20,822 bases of DNA from an uncultured virus (IMG/VR IMGVR_UViG_3300045999_010308) (Duplodnaviria; Heunggongvirae; Uroviricota; Caudoviricetes), in the IMG/VR virus record IMGVR_UViG_3300045999_010308, positions 62,001 to 82,822 of that record, one strand, 5' to 3'. Of this stretch, positions 2,987-20,769 are shown in pieces. How positions within the stretch are numbered: position 1 is the stretch's first letter; every line of letters begins with the position of its first letter. Under the pieces are notes generated by a model. The model was not told where the DNA came from. It did no database searches and saw nothing but the letters and a program-made list of their open reading frames with translations. The position numbers and the translations under genes were made by a program.

Positions 2987-2999
2987 AATCTTGTTTTTC

Positions 3000-3082
3000 T
3001 GTGTTTTGGTTACTTTCTATTATGGATCGTTCTCCCAGTAATGTCAACTATCTGGGAGAATCTTTTCTGAACAAGTGTACTA
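3000..3082 (-). promoter_or_regulatory. Family B promoter/operator, copy 1
   Basis: TTGACA-N17-CATAAT; inverted repeat TTCTCCCAG...CTGGGAGAA straddling the -35. Confidence 0.8.
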
Positions 3083-3103
3083 CTGATAACTGATAACTAG
3101 AAA

Positions 3104-4216
3104 CTAACTAATCTCTATGTCGTTAGCGTCAGCGAAGTCGTTGACATCCATGAACCAGTCTTCCCATTCATCAGGGTCGGATAGATTGACTTTATCGACT
3201 GTCCAGGCTGCACCAGACTGCAAATATAGCCCTGCTTTCCACTTGTCAGGATATGGATGCTTTGCTTTTTCGGTATCGTTGGGAGTAAGAATAAACTGGA
3301 GAATGTCTTTTCCCCATTTACCTTTTTTGATATTGTAAAAACAGGATAAGGCATCAATTAAGTCGTCGCACTCTTGCTGGTAGTCAGCAAAGTTTTCTGG
3401 CAGTTTAAACTTAGATTTTTTAGCCGTCGGTTTTTTATCTGATTTAGGTTTTGGTTCGGCTTCCAATTGACTGTTTTTTAGTTGCTTATTTTCCTGTTCA
3501 AGTTGATAAATACGAGCATGCAGCTGAGTAACAGATTCGTTTAGAACTGTTATTTGATTTGTTTCTCTTTGCAGTGGATAAACTGTAGATTCTAGGTCGT
3601 GAACTTGTTGCTTTAAGTTTTCAATCCATGCTTCATTGTACTCTTTGCCCTGTTTTAATTCATGAATACTAGCCGTCAAGTGGTTAATAATCTCAGATCC
3701 TTCTTTATTTTCACGCTGTCTGAGATTGTGCATCTCTTGAATAGATTGAGTCAATTCAAGATTTTCCCATTCTAAGTTTTGAACTAAATTAGTTAATTGC
3801 CGATTTTTTCCCCATAGTTCCTCATTTGAAATAGAGGTCTTAGTAATTGCATCTTCACCTAACAACATATCAACAAGCGCAACTTGTCGTTTTTCAAAGA
3901 AAGATAACTCGTTATCAGTCTTTAGTTGGTTGTCAATTTCTTGATCCTCTTGTGGGATGTATTTGCAATTATCAAGAGAATCCCACAAATTATCAAATTT
4001 AACACAGTCATCTTGATCATAGTTTTCTAGTGCGTCCCAAAGCTTTTGGATGTCATAATTTGCAACAAATAACCCTTGCGTTTTGACCGTAACATAATCA
4101 CCGTTATCAGTGACTGACAATTTTTCTCCAAAACACTCTTGGTTAATTTGATTGAGGGTGCTTTGGAGCAACCTGATAATTGTGGTTTTTTCGTAAAGTT
4201 CGATATTTGAAGTCAT
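3104..4216 (-). CDS. Hypothetical coiled-coil protein (370 aa)
   Basis: Long ORF with central heptad/Q-E-L-rich region. Confidence 0.8.
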   Translation of the reverse strand: MTSNIELYEKTTIIRLLQSTLNQINQECFGEKLSVTDNGDYVTVKTQGLFVANYDIQKLWDALENYDQDDCVKFDNLWDSLDNCKYIPQEDQEIDNQLKTDNELSFFEKRQVALVDMLLGEDAITKTSISNEELWGKNRQLTNLVQNLEWENLELTQSIQEMHNLRQRENKEGSEIINHLTASIHELKQGKEYNEAWIENLKQQVHDLESTVYPLQRETNQITVLNESVTQLHARIYQLEQENKQLKNSQLEAEPKPKSDKKPTAKKSKFKLPENFADYQQECDDLIDALSCFYNIKKGKWGKDILQFILTPNDTEKAKHPYPDKWKAGLYLQSGAAWTVDKVNLSDPDEWEDWFMDVNDFADANDIEIS

Positions 4217-4229
4217 TTTTTTGTCCTCT

Positions 4230-4313
4230 TGTGTTTTGTTTACTTTTCTATATTAGATCGTTCTCCCAATAAAGTCAAGTATATGGGAAAACTATTTTTG
4301 AGCATTTGTACTA
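4230..4313 (-). promoter_or_regulatory. Family B promoter/operator, copy 2
   Basis: TTGACT-N17-TAATAT; same ~80-bp frame (GTGTTTTGTTTAC...GATCGTTCTCCCA...TGGGA...TGAGCATTTGTAC on +). Confidence 0.8.
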
Positions 4314-4672
4314 CGTCTTTGTTTGTAACGTTGGTGTTGATCCTGTTTTCGTTTAGGATCGAGTTCTCGGTGTTCCAAGCAGTACCCAGATTTGTTTCGG
4401 GCATTAAGTGCCGTAAATTTACCCAAAACTAAGCAGGCATCACAATATTTAGTTTCAGGGATAATTGCTTCTGTAGAAAAGTTGATTCCTTTTTTTGCAA
4501 TTATCTGAGGAGGCTTATCACAGATTAAAGCTACTCTTGTCAAACCTATGCCCGATAAAGAGTAATCTTGTAGCTTAACAAGACTTAAGTTAGTGTCAAT
4601 GTTGTCGATTTTCTGAATAGAAGATTTTAAAACTTCAAAATCTTCCAATTCAAGAGATAAGATTAAGATCAT
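4292..4672 (-). CDS. Hypothetical protein with C-terminal Cys/His zinc-binding motif and basic helix; putative regulator
   Basis: Likely start MILIL at 4672; CDAC...GYCLEH followed by KRKQDQHQRYKQRR. Confidence 0.6.
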   Translation of the reverse strand: MILILSLELEDFEVLKSSIQKIDNIDTNLSLVKLQDYSLSGIGLTRVALICDKPPQIIAKKGINFSTEAIIPETKYCDACLVLGKFTALNARNKSGYCLEHRELDPKRKQDQHQRYKQRRSTNAQK

Positions 4673-5121: not shown

Positions 5122-5136
5122 GATTGTTACTTCTCC

Positions 5137-5217
5137 GTGTTTTGTTTACATTTCTATCATAGATCGTTCTCCCAGTAATGTCAATAAATTGGGAGAATCT
5201 TTTCTGAGCATTTGTAC
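5137..5217 (-). promoter_or_regulatory. Family B promoter/operator, copy 3
   Basis: TTGACA-N17-TATGAT with TTCTCCCA/TGGGAGAA inverted repeat. Confidence 0.8.
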
Positions 5218-5277
5218 CAATAAAAAACGCTTAACTAAGCTAAGTGTTTTTTATTGCTGACTAAGCGATAAGTGTAC

Positions 5278-6541: not shown

Positions 6542-6625
6542 TGTGTTTTGTTTACTCTTTTATATTAGATCATTCTCCCAATAAAGTCAAGTATATGGGT
6601 CAATCTTTTCTGAGCGTTTGTACTA
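6542..6625 (-). promoter_or_regulatory. Family B promoter/operator, copy 4
   Basis: TTGACT-N17-TAATAT; closely similar to 4230-4313. Confidence 0.8.
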
Positions 6626-6644
6626 AGTATATCTACTTGTTATC

Positions 6645-7080
6645 ATTGTAGATACATTGTAGATAGGGTGATCGACAACCGAAACCGTTACCCTGTAAAG
6701 GTTCTAGACTTTGTTGATAATGTCGATGTCTTATGGGAGGAGAAAAAGATAAAAGAATAAACCAGACTGGACAATAAAAAACTGTAGAGTAAAAAAAAGC
6801 AAACAAGGTCAACAGCAAGGCTGTTGGATTGTGATTCGATTGTTAATAAGGTTATTTACAATCGAAATCCTTATAGGGTATAGGTTTCAAGGTTTGTTTA
6901 TCTTGTCGACACTCTATACAGAGAGAGAAAAAATAGGGAGAGATAAACGAACTGGACAATAAGAAAAGGATAAAAAATCTTGACACAGGGAAATAGAGTA
7001 ACAATATAAACAAAGTCTAGAACCTATATATATCAATGCTTTTTATTGTTGATCACCTTATCTACAATCTATTTACAAAC
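6645..7080. repeat. Cluster of three ~80-bp iteron-like elements (6645-6728 +, 6838-6911 +, 6999-7080 -)
   Basis: Each has TTGT(A/T/C)(G/A/T)AT boxes in direct and inverted orientation around a GAAA..TTT core; homologous to 19842-20506. Confidence 0.7.
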
Positions 7081-7090
7081 CAACAAACTA

Positions 7091-7120
7091 TAAACCCCCT
7101 ATGAGTCCATAGGGGGTTTA
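7091..7120. terminator. Hairpin terminator downstream of antirepressor-like gene 1
   Basis: Perfect stem TAAACCCCCTATG-AGTC-CATAGGGGGTTTA. Confidence 0.65.
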
Positions 7121-7130
7121 TCTTGAATGT

Positions 7131-7169
7131 CGGGGTAAAGACCCTCGCTTTTAGCGACGGGAGTGTCAA
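7131..7169 (+). mobile_element. Possible IS200/IS605-family (tnpB) right-end remnant
   Basis: AAGACCCTCGCTTTTAGCGACGGGAGTGTCAA resembles the subterminal hairpin plus GGAGTGTCAA end of cyanobacterial IS605/IS607-type elements; no transposase present. Confidence 0.4.
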
Positions 7170-7185
7170 ATGGGTTTAGGTATTT

Positions 7186-7890
7186 TTACCGTTTTTTGTC
7201 GTTTCTCATAAGCATTCGACCGCCTCGCCATCCCCGTGCTTTTTCTCGTTCGGTTTCGAGGAGGTTAAATTTAGCTATATCGCGCTCTTTTTCGGCGTGT
7301 AATTCTTCGATCACTAGCCGCTTATAGTCAAGCATCGAGTTTTTACTGCTAAAGTCAGCGATCATAGTCTTTTGAGTTTTGATCAACTCCTCTAGTATTT
7401 GCTTCTCTTCGCTTAGTTTGACGATTTGGCTCTCAAGTTGCCTTACCTCTGTAATTGCCTCGCTCTTGACGCGAAAACCAGCTAATGTGTGAAGGAATAA
7501 TCGGACTCCTAGCTTAAGCACTTGAGAGGCTAACTCAGGATTATCCTTTGGCAACCACTTACAGATTAGGTCTTCTGGGATTAGATAAACCCCTTGCAAC
7601 CCGCCCTCTGTTTGAATTTGAGCCTGTTTTAGCAATCCTAATCCTAACCCCATTGTGTTACCCCCTTGTAACCCGCTCCCTGTTTGAATTTGAGGGTGAT
7701 TTGGAGATTCAGAAGTTACCCCCTTGCTATTTTCTTTAGATAGCCGGTTTAATCGCATGGTGATAGCGTTGGAGCTTTTCCCAGACATACGAGCATATCC
7801 TTTGATTGAGGCAAAGCTTTCACCGGTCTGAGTGTCGATAATTAGCTCGATGCCGTCGTGATCAAAACGTTGTAAAATTAGATCAGCCAT
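7186..7890 (-). CDS. Phage antirepressor-like DNA-binding protein (KilA-N/Bro-N-like N-terminus plus coiled coil), paralog 1
   Basis: LQRFDHDGIELIIDTQTGESFASIKGYARMSG...LIPEDLICKWL; paralogous to 19191-19715. Confidence 0.65.
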   Translation of the reverse strand: MADLILQRFDHDGIELIIDTQTGESFASIKGYARMSGKSSNAITMRLNRLSKENSKGVTSESPNHPQIQTGSGLQGGNTMGLGLGLLKQAQIQTEGGLQGVYLIPEDLICKWLPKDNPELASQVLKLGVRLFLHTLAGFRVKSEAITEVRQLESQIVKLSEEKQILEELIKTQKTMIADFSSKNSMLDYKRLVIEELHAEKERDIAKFNLLETEREKARGWRGGRMLMRNDKKR

Positions 7891-8014
7891 GTTAGCCTCT
7901 ACAGTAGGTTGACTTAGTTAGTCCCTCGCGTCAACGAGGGCATATTAATATTGTACTACATTAAATAATCAATTATTCCCCAATATAGAAAATTCTATAT
8001 TGGGGAATCTGGAC

Positions 8015-8133: not shown

Positions 8134-8415
8134 TTAATTAAATTTTTTGTACTCTTGTAGTATTATTTGGGTTGCCTCCTCAATTTGGGTTCCTTTTGAT
8201 AGCAGTTCAAGGACTTTAGCTAAAACTTGTCTGACTCGTTCTTTACCTATTCCTAATTCTGCTGTAGTTGATGCCACTTTAAAGCGATAGTTCCGATGAC
8301 GGGAAGTAACAGGCACTGGGTCAAGATTATTGTTTTTTGCCCACACCAGATAGATGTAGGCTTGTCTAGAAGTTATCACTTTTGTTTTTCTAGTCTTAAT
8401 TTTTGAAAACATCAA
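8134..8415 (-). CDS. Small HTH protein (sigma region 4-like), last gene of the operon; possible Aca-like regulator
   Basis: ASTTAELGIGKERVRQVLAKV helix-turn-helix pattern. Confidence 0.55.
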   Translation of the reverse strand: MMFSKIKTRKTKVITSRQAYIYLVWAKNNNLDPVPVTSRHRNYRFKVASTTAELGIGKERVRQVLAKVLELLSKGTQIEEATQIILQEYKKFN

Positions 8416-8947
8416 TCATCTGGTATTCTTTGATTAAATCAAGGGAATATACACTCCAAATATGAGCGTCTAAAAAGTTAATTCCCGCATTTTTTGCCGC
8501 TAGTTTATCTTCTTCTCGATCTCCTACCATTAAAATATCGATAGGTTCTTTGGCGAAGGCTCTTAAAGCAGCAAAAATCATCCCAGGATTAGGCTTTCTG
8601 AATTGCTCAATAAGATCGGGGTACAGTTCATCAATTTGCACGCAGGAACATTTTCTCACGCGAAAACATTCCCGTCCTTTAAAATCAGGGCAAAAATAAA
8701 TGCAAGAAAGCCGGGGAAATATTTCTAAAGTTTTTAGCTGTTCTTCAATTGCACTTTTTAAGGATTTATGTCCAGCAGCTACTCCGCCCTGATTAGTGAT
8801 TCCTATCATCGTCCATCCCTCTTGATGGTAAATTTCCATAGCTTTTATCGCCCCTTCGATTGGTTCCTGATCGTTTGGATCTTCGATGAATTTTCCGTTG
8901 GTAGATTGGCGGATCGTGCCATCAAGATCGAGCAATAAAGCTTTCAT
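8396..8947 (-). CDS. HAD-superfamily IIIA phosphatase (GmhB/histidinol-phosphatase/polynucleotide 3'-phosphatase-like)
   Basis: DLDGT motif I, ITNQGG motif II, RKPNPGM motif III, MVGDREED motif IV. Confidence 0.9.
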   Translation of the reverse strand: MKALLLDLDGTIRQSTNGKFIEDPNDQEPIEGAIKAMEIYHQEGWTMIGITNQGGVAAGHKSLKSAIEEQLKTLEIFPRLSCIYFCPDFKGRECFRVRKCSCVQIDELYPDLIEQFRKPNPGMIFAALRAFAKEPIDILMVGDREEDKLAAKNAGINFLDAHIWSVYSLDLIKEYQMIDVFKN

Positions 8948-8955
8948 TTTTTCAA

Positions 8956-8998
8956 ATTTTCCCCTACTTAAGCTTCAGGGCATCCCTAATAGGGATTA
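8956..8998 (-). repeat. 43-bp leader repeat containing a CRISPR-repeat hairpin (copy 2)
   Basis: Minus strand TAATCCCTATTAGGGATGCCCTGAAGCTTAAGTAGGGGAAAAT; differs from 9291-9334 by 2 substitutions and 1 indel. Confidence 0.85.
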
Positions 8999-9040
8999 AG
9001 CGAATAATCAAGACAACTGATAACTGACAACCAATTCAAC

Positions 9041-9277
9041 CTATCTAGTGTTGCATCCCAAAATTCCATAAGGATCGCCGTCTTCCTCCACATCTATACT
9101 ATTCCATCGCTGAATAATTTCTTCAGCAAAAGCCTTAGTTAGCAGGGAACCTGGACGATAATATGATCTTCTGTAATGGGCTACTTCTGCGGCAGTTAAA
9201 ATTTCAGAAGTAGTAGCCCGGGAGTTGATGTAGTTAGCAAATTCTTGAGCAGTCATTACCTTTTTGGAATTAGCCAT
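9041..9277 (-). CDS. Small hypothetical protein (78 aa) bracketed by CRISPR-like hairpins; anti-CRISPR candidate
   Basis: ORF with purine-rich leader; function inferred from context only. Confidence 0.65.
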   Translation of the reverse strand: MANSKKVMTAQEFANYINSRATTSEILTAAEVAHYRRSYYRPGSLLTKAFAEEIIQRWNSIDVEEDGDPYGILGCNTR

Positions 9278-9290
9278 TGCCTTCTTGATG

Positions 9291-9404
9291 ATTTTCCCCC
9301 TACTTAAGCTTCGGGGTATCCCTAATAGGGATTAGATAAAGCGCACGCAACTACGACTATAGTTCATAGTTTCAATTCCTAATAGGAGTTCTTTGTGCAG
9401 CTAC
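9291..9404 (-). CRISPR. Solitary CRISPR-like unit: repeat (9369-9404), spacer (9335-9368), degenerate repeat/leader (9291-9334); no cas genes
   Basis: GTAGCTGCACAAAGAACTCCTATTAGGAATTGAAAC (36 nt, GT...ATTGAAAC, hairpin TCCT-ATT-AGGA), then TATGAACTATAGTCGTAGTTGCGTGCGCTTTATC, then TAATCCCTATTAGGGAT. Confidence 0.7.
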
Positions 9405-9470
9405 CTTAAGTAAATCACTTAATTCTTGATAGGTGTTGGCGAAGCGTGCCGCTTTAGGCACTGGCACGCT
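9405..9470 (-). promoter_or_regulatory. Family C promoter/operator, copy 1 (upstream of the CRISPR-like unit)
   Basis: TCTTGATAGGTGTTGGCGAAG shared with the 9968-9988 copy; inverted repeat AGCGTGCC-N12-GGCACGCT. Confidence 0.6.
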
Positions 9471-9921
9471 GAGAAAAGCGGTAGCATACTTCTTGATAGG
9501 AGATGCTCTGGATTTCCCCTTTGACATTTTCAAATACCCAATAATCGCCATCGCTATCTTGATAAATAGCATTAGCATTTAAATCAATAGGAATCTCAAA
9601 AGTTGCAGATGTTTCGCCTTTTTTACCTTCAAATTTTCGACTTACAGGCTCGATAAACTTCTTAGTGAATCCACCGTGCTTAATATCTTTTTCGGGTGAG
9701 ATTTTCGCTACCCATGCTCTCCAAGCGCGGCGAGGAGTTTCTAAAATAAGAGTGCGAGTTTTAGGCAATCTTTTAAAAGCCACGATATTATTTTTTTGAA
9801 GCTGTTCAATTGCGGCTTCTACCGCTAAGATTTTTTCAATTAGTTTACGCTGGTTTTGCCGTCCTCTACTGATTGCTAGTTGAGCGTTTAGTCGAGCCAG
9901 TTTAGATTGTAGGTTATTCAT
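9454..9921 (-). CDS. Hypothetical protein (155 aa), N-terminus shared with 5278-6531
   Basis: ORF behind a family C promoter. Confidence 0.8.
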   Translation of the reverse strand: MNNLQSKLARLNAQLAISRGRQNQRKLIEKILAVEAAIEQLQKNNIVAFKRLPKTRTLILETPRRAWRAWVAKISPEKDIKHGGFTKKFIEPVSRKFEGKKGETSATFEIPIDLNANAIYQDSDGDYWVFENVKGEIQSISYQEVCYRFSQRASA

Positions 9922-9933
9922 GATCTGCGATGC

Positions 9934-10012
9934 GTGTTTTGCTTACATTTCTAATATAGATCGATCCTCTTGATAAGTGTTGGCGAAGTGTGACACTTGA
10001 TAAACTGCCACT
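9934..10012 (-). promoter_or_regulatory. Family C promoter/operator, copy 2 (with family B-type -10/leader)
   Basis: GATC-TATATT-AGAAATG -10 context as in family B; no TTGACA, but GTGAC-N12-GCCAC inverted repeat upstream. Confidence 0.65.
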
Positions 10013-10225: not shown

Positions 10226-10292
10226 TATATTTTAAATATATCATGATAATTTTCAGATAGTTGGCAAAGTGTGACAGTTTATCAAGTGTCAC
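10226..10292 (-). promoter_or_regulatory. Family C promoter/operator, copy 3
   Basis: GTTGGCAAAGTGTGAC-N12-GTCAC; TATATT/TAAAAT -10 candidates. Confidence 0.6.
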
Positions 10293-10312
10293 TGTAGATA
10301 CTTTTGTACTGA

Positions 10313-15887: not shown

Positions 15888-15939
15888 TTTTTTGTTTGGT
15901 TGATGATTGTTGACTGATAACTAATAACTGATCGATAAA

Positions 15940-16395: not shown

Positions 16396-16445
16396 TGTTT
16401 TACTCCTAAATAATTTGTTTACTGATAACTGATACCTAGCTAAAA

Positions 16446-16673: not shown

Positions 16674-16759
16674 TGTGCTTTTGCTTGCTTGATTTTATCT
16701 TGCATCATTCTCCCAGTAAAATTAACTATCTGGGAGAATAATTTCTGAACGTTTGTACT
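16674..16759 (-). promoter_or_regulatory. Family B promoter/operator, copy 5 (degenerate -35/-10, intact operator)
   Basis: ATTCTCCCAG-TAAAATTAACTAT-CTGGGAGAAT...TTTCTGAACGTTTGTACT. Confidence 0.65.
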
Positions 16760-16773
16760 GCTTGATAACTAAT

Positions 16774-17157: not shown

Positions 17158-17206
17158 GGTTTTTACTCTTAATAGGTTGCTGTTTACTGATAACTGATAA
17201 CTGGTA

Positions 17207-17683
17207 TCAAAACTCTTGCCATGTCATCGGGTCGGTCATTGGCTCACAGTACCGACTTAAATCCGACGGCTCGGTATCATCATAAATAAAATCGTCTGTA
17301 GGTTCGTTACTAGGAATCTCATAGTAGCGTCCGCCACAATTTACAAGTCCCATCGTAGGGGAAATAACAAAAGATTTTTTGACGGGTTCAAATTCGATTG
17401 CGGGTAATTCGCAGCTAGGAAGTTTCCCGTCGGGGCTGAAACCACGACTTAACTTACCATTAAAAGTATCGAAAAACCATTCTTTACCAGTTTGCTGGCA
17501 CGTTACTCGGAGAGTGGTAATTTGACCCTTTCCCCATACTTCAAGGGAAACCCAGTGCTTTTGTCCTTTGGCGATCATAGTGAAATTGCCAGACATGACG
17601 GGAACGCGGTTAAATTTGACAGAAACAGGATTAGATGTTAACATGACTTTTGACCTGATAAGGGTTGACGGAAAGGCGATCAC
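17207..17683 (-). CDS. Hypothetical protein
   Basis: ORF behind the promoter at 17725-17755; start could be 17644. Confidence 0.7.
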   Translation of the reverse strand: MIAFPSTLIRSKVMLTSNPVSVKFNRVPVMSGNFTMIAKGQKHWVSLEVWGKGQITTLRVTCQQTGKEWFFDTFNGKLSRGFSPDGKLPSCELPAIEFEPVKKSFVISPTMGLVNCGGRYYEIPSNEPTDDFIYDDTEPSDLSRYCEPMTDPMTWQEF

Positions 17684-18745: not shown

Positions 18746-18818
18746 GCGGGGTGAGTGAAATGGTTTCCACATAGGCCTCATAAGCCTAAAACACTAGGTT
18801 CGACTCCTAGACCCCACA
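18746..18818 (+). tRNA. tRNA with CAT anticodon (elongator Met or Ile2)
   Basis: Acceptor GCGGGGT/ACCCCAC (one C:A mismatch), D arm GTG/CAC, anticodon arm TAGGC-CTCATAA-GCCTA, T arm CTAGG-TTCGACT-CCTAG; CCA not encoded. Confidence 0.88.
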
Positions 18819-19116: not shown

Positions 19117-19190
19117 TTAAATATGGTATAATATTGATACGCCCCCGCGTTAACGGGGGACTAATCACAATTACTATTACAGAGTAAATC

Positions 19191-19715
19191 ATGACTAATC
19201 CTAGTTTACAGCGTTTTGATCACGATGGTATTGAATTAATTATCAATACCGAGACTGGTGAAAGCTTTGCCTCAATTAGTGGATATGCCCGGATGTCAGG
19301 GAAAATACCTTCAACTATTTCTCGCCGTTTGACTATGAGGGGTTTGCGTGAAAAGGGTCTTGATCAAGCTCAAATCGAGACAGCAGGCGGATTACAAGGT
19401 GTTGCATTGATCCCAGAAGATTTAATCTGTCAGTGGTTAATTAAAGACAATCACGAACTAGCCCTAAAAGTAATGCAGTTGGGCGTTCGCTTATTCCTTC
19501 ACACCTTAGCCGGTTTTCAGGTCAAAAGTGAGGCAATTGAGACTAACAAGCAACTTGAGAGCCAAGTCGCTGAATTGACTGCCAAAATCGACAAATTGGA
19601 TTATCGAGAAGTTGACTATATCGATGAAATCCTCGGCTTAAAAGACCGAATTAAAAAGCTTGAGAGCGAGAACTCTACTCTAGAGGAACAAATCGAGTTA
19701 ATGGGGGGATATTAG
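19191..19715 (+). CDS. Phage antirepressor-like DNA-binding protein, paralog 2
   Basis: LQRFDHDGIELIINTETGESFASISGYARMSG...; paralog of 7186-7890 with a different coiled-coil tail. Confidence 0.65.
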   Translation: MTNPSLQRFDHDGIELIINTETGESFASISGYARMSGKIPSTISRRLTMRGLREKGLDQAQIETAGGLQGVALIPEDLICQWLIKDNHELALKVMQLGVRLFLHTLAGFQVKSEAIETNKQLESQVAELTAKIDKLDYREVDYIDEILGLKDRIKKLESENSTLEEQIELMGGY

Positions 19716-19779
19716 GTGAAAAGCAGTAAATAAGGTTACTTACTGCTAAAATAAAAAACAATTGATAACTGATAAAGCT

Positions 19780-19808
19780 AACCCCTGTAATCTCTACAGG
19801 GGTTTTTT
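19780..19808 (+). terminator. Intrinsic terminator
   Basis: AACCCCTGTA-ATCTC-TACAGGGGTT followed by a T-tract. Confidence 0.75.
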
Positions 19809-19841
19809 GTTGTCTAATGTTCGGAGATTGGCTAGTTGTTA

Positions 19842-20506
19842 GATTGTTAATAGATTGTAAACAAAGCTATTAACAATGGAATCCTTGATATATATAGATT
19901 TCAGACTTTGTTTATATTGTTAGCCTTGTTCCCGTGTCAGAATTTTTTATGTTTTTATTGCTGACCTCGATTAATTAGATTGTTAGTTTGTAAATAGATT
20001 GTAAATAAGAGTATTTACAAAGATAGAAAAGATGAAAGTATTGATATATATAGCTTTCATTATTTTTGTACTTCTTTGTTGATATTGTTGATGATTACCC
20101 CGTGTGTATTTTTTGCCTTATTGTTGAGTCTGTTTCTTTTTATTGTTGACCTTGTTTGTTTTCTTTATCTTTTTTCTCTCTATAGAGCATCAACAATATC
20201 TACAAAGCCTAAAACCTAGTCGGGGTAAGGGTTTTGATTGTAGATAACCTTATTAACAATTGAATTACAAAAAGAACAAATTAGAGATAAAGCACTTCTC
20301 GCTTTTAAAATTCTCTGATTAGCCGAAAATACGGCATTTTGTCAATAGAGTCAGTTTTGCGTTTAATCACTTTTATTGCTGACTTTGCTGTATATCTTCT
20401 TTTCTCTCTTTTCCTCTATAAGGCATCGACAATATCTACAAAGTCTAAAGCCTATACTCAGCAAGGGTTTCGATTGTCGATAACCTTATTAACAATCTAT
20501 CTACAA
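19842..20506. repeat. Cluster of four ~80-bp iteron-like elements (19842-19922 +, 19986-20093 +, 20188-20261 -, 20424-20506 -)
   Basis: The reverse complement of 20424-20506 aligns along its length with 6645-6728; same TTGTnnAT box layout. Confidence 0.7.
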
Positions 20507-20769
20507 CCTAACAACCGCTCTGTAGTATTTGTAGTATATGTAATACGGATAGATAAAAAAAATACCGCTCCCTCGTAGGGCGGTAATCCAAGTCAATCTT
20601 TAAAAAAATTCTCTCATAGTCTTAATAGAATTGTCAAGACAAAAAAATAAACGCGCTCCCGGGTGCGGTATAAAAGAGCGCGGCGGTGTAAATATGTTTT
20701 CCTTTTAATTATATCTCAAAAAAGAAAATTCAAGATATAATAATACAAGAAACAGTACGCACCTCATCG

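Follow-up and report, generated by a model that had tools for sequence, protein, structure and literature searches.

The cassette and its surroundings

The stretch of DNA analysed here, referred to as the window, is 20,822 nucleotides (nt) long and corresponds to bases 62001-82822 of the 82,822-base record of an uncultured virus of the Caudoviricetes (IMG/VR IMGVR_UViG_3300045999_010308). Proteins encoded in the window include a large terminase, DNA methyltransferases, several helix-turn-helix (HTH) regulators and the products of many small open reading frames (ORFs) without known function. The 176-nt gap between two minus-strand ORFs, 9454-9921 and 9041-9277, contains a cassette resembling part of a CRISPR array. 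Direct reading of the minus strand found four elements in it, R1, psiS, R′ and hp2 (Table 1). The original prediction, made from the sequence alone, had described a 36-nt repeat-like unit, a 34-nt stretch and a second unit on this strand, and all three are present at 9404-9318. Its definition of the first unit as 36 nt long with a GT start did not hold: among relatives, GCACAAAG (9398) is where conservation sets in, and the preceding bases are variable, so that the 5′ boundary of R1 is arbitrary.

R′ consists of an exact copy of the hairpin of the host repeats described below, with its 5′ flank, and the TGAAAC end of the handle is replaced. The R′ sequence, TAATCCCTATTAGGGAT, occurs exactly at two sites in the window (9318-9334 and 8982-8998), and two matches were obtained in 0 of 100 shuffled sequences. 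The second site belongs to a further R′+hp2 copy, which directly precedes an ORF for a HAD/polynucleotide-3′-phosphatase-like protein (8396-8947). The loop and 3′ arm of hp2 resemble the repeat of a CRISPR array located elsewhere in the same phage (AAGCTTAAG..TAGGGG), minus 6 nt, and by this resemblance hp2 may be a third, decayed repeat. Upstream of the cassette, a 44-nt intergenic module recurs at 9968-10011 and, partly, at 10260-10293. It is a possible operator or promoter, and in the alignment described below it varied among relatives and was deleted in one of them (locus L196).

Table 1. Positions of the cassette elements and of neighbouring features in the window
Feature	Position	Strand	Details
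R1, repeat-like unit GTAGCTGCACAAAGAACTCCTATTAGGAATTGAAAC	9404-9369	-	conserved core 9398-9369
R1 hairpin TCCT-ATT-AGGA	9387-9377	-	
R1 8-nt handle ATTGAAAC	9376-9369	-	
psiS, 34-nt spacer-like stretch TATGAAC...TTTATC	9368-9335	-	
R′, truncated repeat TAATCCCTATTAGGGAT	9334-9318	-	hairpin TCCCT-ATT-AGGGA (9331-9319), 5′ flank TAA
hp2, stem-loop CCCC-GAAGCTTAAGTA-GGGG	9316-9297	-	12-nt loop; directly 3′ of R′
Second R′+hp2 copy	8998-8957	-	93% identical; without R1 and psiS
TAAGGT box (TAnnnT)	9403-9408	-	4 nt upstream of GCACAAAG; near-invariant; TAGAGT in L152-type relatives
Upstream intergenic module	9424-9467	-	GTGCC..GGCAC inverted repeat that surrounds the upstream ORF's stop codon, followed by CTTCGCCAACACCTATCAAGA
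Upstream ORF, 155 amino acids (aa)	9454-9921	-	no family match; same strand as cassette
Downstream ORF, 78 aa	9041-9277	-	ATG 19 nt after hp2; no family match
TGATAACTGATAACTG-type copies	801-828, 2819-2846, 3084-3111, 9011-9038, 15908-15935, 16416-16443, 17188-17215		

Likeness to host CRISPR repeats

The hairpin-plus-handle pattern of the cassette was scanned over one genome per prokaryote species, which yielded at least 122 stretches. Among the matches listed, nearly all were from filamentous cyanobacteria, in the genera Nostoc, Scytonema, Calothrix, Fischerella, Anabaena, Microcoleus and others. Eighty host loci were fetched, among which there were 58 arrays with at least three repeats. 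A 19-nt 3′ end, CCCTATTAGGGATTGAAAC, was common to 57 of these 58 arrays. Their 5′ halves vary freely, and the diverged 5′ half of R1 is therefore normal for this repeat family.

The consensus of the host arrays is the 20-mer TCCCTATTAGGGATTGAAAC, with which R1 is identical at 17 of 20 positions. When up to three mismatches were permitted, this 20-mer matched the window only once, at 9369-9388 on the minus strand, and matches were found in 0 of 100 shuffles. Two of the three differences in R1 turn the second stem pair from C:G in the host into T:A, which is the compensatory stem change that had been proposed beforehand. The third difference abolishes the outermost stem pair. The cassette is a genuine, non-chance phage-borne repeat-spacer-partial-repeat unit, and this viral sequence mimics the host CRISPR repeat in both sequence and hairpin. 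Two claims of the original prediction were thereby borne out, namely that the unit mimics a class 1 repeat with a hairpin and the ATTGAAAC handle, and that its 3′ half would align with host CRISPR repeats.

The original prediction had also likened the unit to the type I-D repeat of Microcystis. One host array (L023) directly follows a type I-D operon (Csc2, Csc1, Cas6, Cas4, Cas1d). In sequenced genomes, arrays of this type belong to filamentous cyanobacteria and not specifically to Microcystis, although the repeat end given in that prediction occurs in other viral contigs. No cas gene was found within 6 kb of nine of the ten host arrays whose flanks were examined. Csc2 was present in 71 of 91 sampled genomes of the host array family.

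Conservation, mobility and structure

The same pattern was also scanned over IMG/VR, giving 70 stretches, 23 of which were this cassette with its psiS included. A search of IMG/VR with the 23-nt core of psiS returned 29 stretches, all of them the cassette (29/29). Conservation in related phages, on which the original prediction had depended, was thus observed in at least 29 related viral contigs, in which the cassette and its psiS lie beside different genes. When the window was aligned with 15 distinct loci, the region between about 9415 and 9296 proved almost invariant, the upstream context deviated in three of the 15 loci and four different genes followed the block. The cassette is mobile between gene contexts.

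Diversity was measured among eight phages sharing both flanking genes. It was 0.030 in R1, 0.022 in psiS, 0.015 in R′ and 0.047 in hp2, as compared with 0.10-0.11 in the flanking ORFs (0.07 at second and 0.14-0.17 at third codon positions) and 0.18 in the upstream non-coding DNA. The cassette was 3-7 times less variable than its flanks.

Secondary structure was scored as paired or unpaired cells over 22 distinct variants. The stem of R1 was paired in 88 of 88 cells and that of R′ in 110 of 110, with stem changes to G-U only, in agreement with the selection on the hairpin that had been proposed. Hairpin loops varied while the stems persisted, the R′ loop occurring as ATT, ACT, AAT or ATC. The hp2 stem was paired in 95.5% of cells (4 of 88 unpaired). 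A further stem predicted inside psiS was rejected, as two linked variants weaken it and are not compensatory.

R′+hp2 was found in 41 copies in 37 IMG/VR loci, and 30 of the copies follow R1 and psiS as they do in the window. The remaining 11 comprise four before the HAD gene, three in small contigs and four in a second allele of the cassette, which is described below. The small contigs are of about 18 kb, and in one of them (L259) the module was preceded by a near full-length repeat with another type of 5′ half. In one locus (L153), a deletion had removed R′. The HAD ORF 8396-8947 encodes a polynucleotide kinase 3′-phosphatase-like domain and is the commonest gene behind the cassette. Enzymes of this kind act on RNA ends of the type left by Cas6-type nucleases, and a possible link, though only that, exists between this gene and RNA ends made by Cas6.

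Other families of solitary host-type repeats were also seen in cyanophage contigs, one in L132, L151, L159 and L167, another in L135, L142, L170, L171, L191 and L192, and a third in L137 and L184. Several such solitary repeats end 5-8 nt before an ATG, and in one family a terminator-like hairpin follows.

The cassette could be thought of as a functionless, decaying remnant of a mini-array, captured or of phage origin, that looks conserved only through recent recombinational spread. R′ and hp2 do look like truncated repeats, and the deletion in L153 takes out R′. Recombination between R′+hp2 copies also appears to occur: an RNA-library contig (run X12) joins 8960 to 9297, and this joint, which leaves out the 78-aa ORF, marks a co-occurring variant that is expected from such recombination and has the layout of relatives whose cassette sits immediately before the HAD gene. 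However, in phages about 10% apart the diversity of the cassette falls not only well below that of its flanks but below that of second codon positions. The number of contigs, the several gene contexts and the stems kept while loops vary speak against decay as well, and we consider a remnant very improbable.

A second allele and a short period

A second allele of the cassette was recovered in four copies by the R′+hp2 search and in a fifth by a search of its own. In this allele R1, R′ and hp2 are kept, T is the last base of the handle, and psiS is wholly unlike over its first ~17 nt. When IMG/VR was searched with the psiS of this allele, all five matches (5/5) were cassettes. One and the same downstream gene was seen with either allele, and four genes follow the first allele. 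For these reasons psiS appears to act as an exchangeable spacer and not as the regulator of a single, specific gene.

Hairpin to hairpin, R1 and R′ are spaced with a period of 57 nt. Periods in host arrays (n=1404) ranged from 64 to 88 nt with a median of 72, and the minimum among viral arrays (n=98) was 69. The spacer-like stretch is thus shorter than canonical, and the cassette is not a normal array unit, being about 15 nt too short. The short spacer suspected in the original prediction was confirmed in this respect, as the period is below all 1404 host values.

Two readings without a CRISPR component bear on psiS and its surroundings. One is an 11-codon leader ORF (MNYSRSCVRFI), with its ATG at 9365 and a Shine-Dalgarno-like AGGA 9 nt upstream, which is a good spacing; the other is an operator for a phage regulator, of which the window's several HTH proteins offer candidates. 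All four variable positions (4/4) in the short ORF change a residue and the second allele lacks the ORF, so that coding was rejected as the cause of conservation. Neither an ORF nor an operator explains the similarity to host repeats. A protein-coding or protein-binding element is accordingly the reading to which we give least credence, and it is improbable in the extreme.

A TnpB/Cas12-like locus in the same phage

The original prediction had stated that there are no cas genes. This is correct within the window, but a TnpB/Cas12-like gene and a CRISPR array are present elsewhere in the phage. The array (G000:C1:44,440-44,860, minus strand) lies outside the window, 27 kb from the cassette, and has five good repeats, a degenerate sixth and spacers of ~33-37 nt. 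Its repeat ends in TTATTAGGG[G/A]TTGAAAC and comprises a host-type hairpin (with a G-U pair) and the ATTGAAAC handle. It scored 32.9 bits against the Rfam family CRISPR-DR5, whose gathering score, 40, it does not reach. The array lies between ORFs of 629 and 561 aa (G000:C1:42264-46841; loci L002 and L005). Both carry OrfB_IS605 and Cas12f1-like TNB domains, and the best solved relatives of their proteins are Cas12f, TnpB and Cas12p. An array of 2-24 repeats with different spacers comes ~120 nt after the 629-aa gene in 13 viral loci, and behind the 561-aa paralogue four loci have either one repeat or a unit with one spacer.

The presence of such a locus raises the question of whether the cassette is an outlying guide for the phage's own type V-U2-like effector. 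The array beside the TnpB/Cas12f-like ORFs has nearly the same repeat 3′ end as the cassette, AAGCTTAAG is shared by the hp2 loop and the array repeat, and a homologue of the effector is present in four of five large cassette records, with the synteny of gene and array kept in the 13 loci mentioned above. On the other hand, a complete record (G410; 64.5 kb, CheckV 100%) has the cassette without a homologue, and none was found in five other R′+hp2 records (0/5), which are fragments, 47-88% complete. R1 and R′ are also nearer to the host repeat. The last 22 nt of R1 have three differences from the host repeat and four from the phage array repeat, the R′ hairpin is that of the host, and the 5′ half of R1 is unlike that of the array. 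No target for such a guide was found in the phage itself. We consider a guide for the phage's own effector improbable.

A proposed Cas6-processed mimic within a message leader

We give an even chance to the best-supported reading, namely that the cassette specifies a phage-made mimic of CRISPR RNA (crRNA), of the Racr or Cracr kind, directed at a host class 1 system processed by Cas6 and fused to an mRNA leader. The system concerned would be type I-D, and possibly also type III, of a filamentous cyanobacterium. Transcription would run on the minus strand, with the cassette forming the leader of an early-gene mRNA. Both hairpins would be bound by host Cas6, and its two cuts, one 8 nt short of the R1 end and the other at the R′ base, would release a short RNA made up of the 8-nt 5′ AUUGAAAC tag, ~37 nt and then the host-type hairpin. 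The released RNA might occupy Cas6 and the backbone subunits as a decoy, in the manner of Racr RNAs. Alternatively, it might load the host complex as a shortened regulatory guide, in the manner of Cracr or CreR RNAs, against a target that the searches did not reveal. That psiS is constrained and is replaced in the second allele speaks more for a guide than for a pure decoy; the lack of a target speaks for the decoy, and neither is preferred here. The class proposed in the original prediction, a solitary repeat unit (SRU) or Racr RNA or else a regulatory crRNA-like guide, is the one that fits best. In favour of the reading are the likeness to the host repeat, the preserved stems, the constraint on all parts with psiS among them, the mobility, the shortened spacer and the two psiS alleles, all seen in the sequences themselves, together with the presence of the stretch in RNA-library contigs and the precedents of Racr RNAs and cyanophage N-1 given below. 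The start of transcription, the binding and cutting by Cas6, an effect on immunity and the host's identity are inferred.

A number of results weigh against this reading. The first group concerns expression. The original prediction had given the cassette a promoter of its own, and no sigma-70-type match was found on the minus strand around it. No terminator was predicted around the cassette either, including between the upstream ORF and the cassette. The cassette is consequently not a stand-alone small-RNA gene. With no promoter match and no terminator following, it is the 5′ leader of the next gene.

The second group concerns structure and origin. No two-sided covariation was found within the phage set of 22 variants, and the structural case thus rests on the preservation of stems and on the single compensatory change relative to the host. 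The fold energy of the whole unit was unremarkable (z = -1.44). R1 had no match among Rfam CRISPR repeat families at E values up to 1. Comparison of 1401 host spacers with the phage gave only chance matches of 14-20 nt and no protospacer. A cultured relative was sought in a phage collection, and there was no DNA match and no record with a terminase more than 44% identical. A filamentous cyanobacterial host is therefore suggested by repeat similarity alone.

The third group concerns the target of a guide, for which the original prediction had proposed a search of the host, especially its cas promoters, and of competing phages and plasmids, and which was found in none of the collections searched. 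In the phage's own genome the best match to psiS was 21/34, within the range of shuffled sequences, and no word of at least 11 nt recurred. Apart from the cassette itself (29/29), IMG/VR contained no match to the 23-nt core, and twelve matches to the 18-nt seed were about the number expected by chance and none of them extended. JGI metagenome contigs gave 0 psiS matches in a non-cassette upstream context. Among 401 cyanobacterial genomes of the order, one match was found at up to three mismatches, as compared with five for a reversed control. A search of 389 genomes of the family for handle plus seed gave ~200 matches, which is the control level. The six of these with an exact handle and the longest seed were inspected for a host crRNA-like unit with the same seed, and a repeat hairpin lay upstream in none of them (0/6). 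Seed words of both alleles occurred at chance level across the 350 kb of 21 host type I-D loci. A pure decoy does not explain the constraint on psiS. A seed-length match may exist in an unsampled host, and the missing match to a host promoter or to CreA or CreR is a failure to find one and not proof of absence.

Transcription may nevertheless start close to the cassette. The TAAGGT box falls below the criteria of the promoter scan and is, by inference only, a candidate -10 element; L152-type relatives have a TATATT box upstream. A transcription start just before R1 is plausible from these motifs. The cassette stretch was present in RNA-library contigs from three studies, at depths like those of neighbouring genes. 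These data are contigs that carry no RNA ends, strand or level, and they show presence only; nothing can be read from the places where contigs break, 9358/9400 (X16) and 9329/9368 (X17).

The absence of a terminator also agrees with a cis-acting, portable 5′ untranslated region, in which R′+hp2, whether or not R1 and psiS precede it, is cut or bound by Cas6, another RNase or an RNA-binding protein. The message would gain a defined, hp2-capped 5′ end that sets its stability or translation, with consequences for CRISPR immunity, if any, being secondary. In every case a ribosome binding site and ATG follow the end of the cassette at 15-25 nt with no terminator in between, and other solitary repeats in cyanophage contigs are likewise placed shortly before an ATG. 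Eleven of the 41 R′+hp2 copies lack the R1 and psiS of the first allele, including the second copies before the HAD gene. A 5′-OH end left by Cas6 is described as more stable than a primary 5′ end (PMC10651486). Such a leader offers no reason for the constraint on psiS, which equals that on the hairpins, for the exchange of the seed half of psiS as a whole or for the full 8-nt handle of R1. The broken hp2 stem in 4/88 cells and the lack of correspondence between alleles and downstream genes also fit it poorly. We regard such a cis-acting leader as unlikely, although it is the main rival and accounts for the placement ahead of start codons and for the stand-alone copies.

A combination of the two ideas is conceivable, to which we attach rather little confidence. 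The recognition hairpin of host Cas6 would have become a portable leader block (R′+hp2) across cyanophages of several host groups, extended in the present phage family by the full handle and a short, allele-bearing guide. Cas6 would then be drained from immunity while maturing the phage messages, and the short crRNA would steer the type I-D complex to a target recognisable only by a partial, seed-length match.

Comparison with known systems

Solitary repeats, Racr RNAs and viral regulatory mini-arrays are already known, and what is unusual here is that the cassette is joined to a message leader. In the account of Camara-Wilpert et al. (2023, PMC10651486), Racr RNAs are solitary repeats to which Cas6 binds and which it cleaves. 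The cassette is similar in being a viral copy of a host-repeat hairpin and handle located away from cas genes, with Cas6 binding and cleavage predicted. It differs in adding a conserved spacer-like stretch and a truncated second repeat, in being fused to an mRNA leader without a terminator, and in that it would belong to a cyanobacterial type I-D system. A Racr is recognised as a single repeat away from cas genes with a promoter directly upstream. Here no cas family was found in the window, the unit consists of a repeat, a spacer-like stretch and a truncated repeat, and the Cas12-like locus is 27 kb off. Directly upstream, the conserved TAnnnT box, with TATATT in the L152-type relatives, is present and a sigma-70-type match is not. 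The main text of PMC10651486 has one mention each of type I-D and of cyanobacteria, and the one shown is in a reference title.

Viral regulatory crRNA-like RNAs have been described with a psiS of reduced length (bioRxiv 10.1101/2024.10.29.618823). The cassette shares with Cracr and viral CreR-CreA mini-arrays a psiR-psiS-psiR arrangement with degenerate repeats in a phage, a short psiS and alleles on a constant scaffold (bioRxiv 10.1101/2024.10.29.618823; bioRxiv 10.1101/2023.03.03.530964). As in Cracr, its degenerate repeats lie on either side of a spacer-like stretch, in a mobile element and not within a CRISPR-cas locus. Unlike in Cracr, the defining match of at least 9 nt proximal to the protospacer adjacent motif (PAM), to a host cas or toxin promoter or to CreA/CreR, was sought for the cassette and not found. 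The Cracr cases described are of types V-A, I-F, I-E, I-C and I-B in three other phyla (bioRxiv 10.1101/2024.10.29.618823), and the main text of that source contains 0 mentions of type I-D or of cyanobacteria. Host mini-arrays near cas3 in type I-D loci are already in print (bioRxiv 10.1101/2023.03.03.530964).

A mini-unit was also observed in our host material. Beside the type I-D genes of an Anabaena-type genome (L329, 4930-5115), a crRNA-like unit is made up of a degenerate repeat, 43 nt, a truncated hairpin and a terminator. Its spacer-like stretch agrees over the first 11 nt with a site that lies ~95 nt upstream and has GTC before it, and the unit looks like a self-regulatory guide of the CreA/CreR type. 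Similar isolated units in L315, L320 and L325 had no nearby seed match.

Among cyanophages, N-1 has a cas-free array whose repeat is processed by the Cas6 enzymes of Anabaena 7120, and the mature crRNAs start with an 8-nt tag (bioRxiv 10.1101/2020.04.14.041012). The present phage resembles N-1 as a phage of a presumed Nostocales host with host-like repeats that host Cas6 could process. However, the array of N-1 is regular, whereas the cassette has a single shortened unit, whose second repeat is truncated and whose spacer is conserved and not variable. Virus-borne mini-CRISPR arrays (PMC6858448) likewise have one spacer between two repeats and no cas genes nearby, but their spacers match related viruses, whereas psiS has no protospacer in IMG/VR or the JGI metagenome contigs. 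The type V-U2 system of cyanophage vB_AphaS-CL131 (PMC6293099) is comparable to the distant locus, with a TnpB-like effector beside an array in a phage of a filamentous cyanobacterium. The CL131 repeats are reported to be unlike those of the host (PMC6293099), whereas the repeat of the distant array here has the host hairpin and handle. We found no published type I-D or cyanophage case of such RNA mimics; supplementary tables may list candidates.

Imitating CRISPR repeats with RNA is a strategy, recognised recently, by which phages disarm or redirect host immunity, and the cases described in the sources cited here belong to other bacterial phyla and other CRISPR types (PMC10651486; bioRxiv 10.1101/2024.10.29.618823). 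If the combined reading of leader block and guide is true, the cassette would be the first type I-D and cyanobacterial viral regulatory guide and the first mimic built into a message leader. A mobile, conserved mimic directed at the type I-D/III repeats of bloom-forming filamentous cyanobacteria would extend the idea to ecologically important hosts. The element would also be compact and testable, at ~110 nt and with two natural spacer alleles. It also raises the issue of whether phages shape their own messages through Cas6 sites. The presence in the same genome of a Cas12-like system with a host-type handle makes this phage family well suited as a model of how host and viral CRISPR parts interact.

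Other features of the window and the phage

A tRNA gene is located at 18746-18818 on the plus strand of the window (Rfam, 52.2 bits), and the tRNA was the only family detected when the window was scanned against Rfam at the gathering score. An 87-nt repeat family was found upstream of minus-strand genes, at 2999-3085, 4230-4316, 5136-5222, 6542-6628 and 16677-16763. On the minus strand each contains TTGACA, 17 nt and CATAAT inside an inverted repeat (TTCTCCCAG..CTGGGAGAA). Judging from these motifs, the 87-nt repeats are probably the phage's main early promoters with an operator. A shorter motif of the TGATAACTGATAACTG type occurs in seven copies in short intergenic gaps (Table 1), for example just past the stop codon of ORF 9041-9277.

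Long inverted repeats join 6646-7907 and 19174-20532, with arms of 108-174 nt that are 70-78% complementary. ORF 7186-7890 on the minus strand and ORF 19191-19715 on the plus strand are apparent diverged paralogues in opposite orientation, each beside arrays of ~40-nt direct repeats. Outside the window, G000:C1:49500-59252 is a single ORF of 3251 aa with tape-measure, peptidase M23 and lytic transglycosylase domains.

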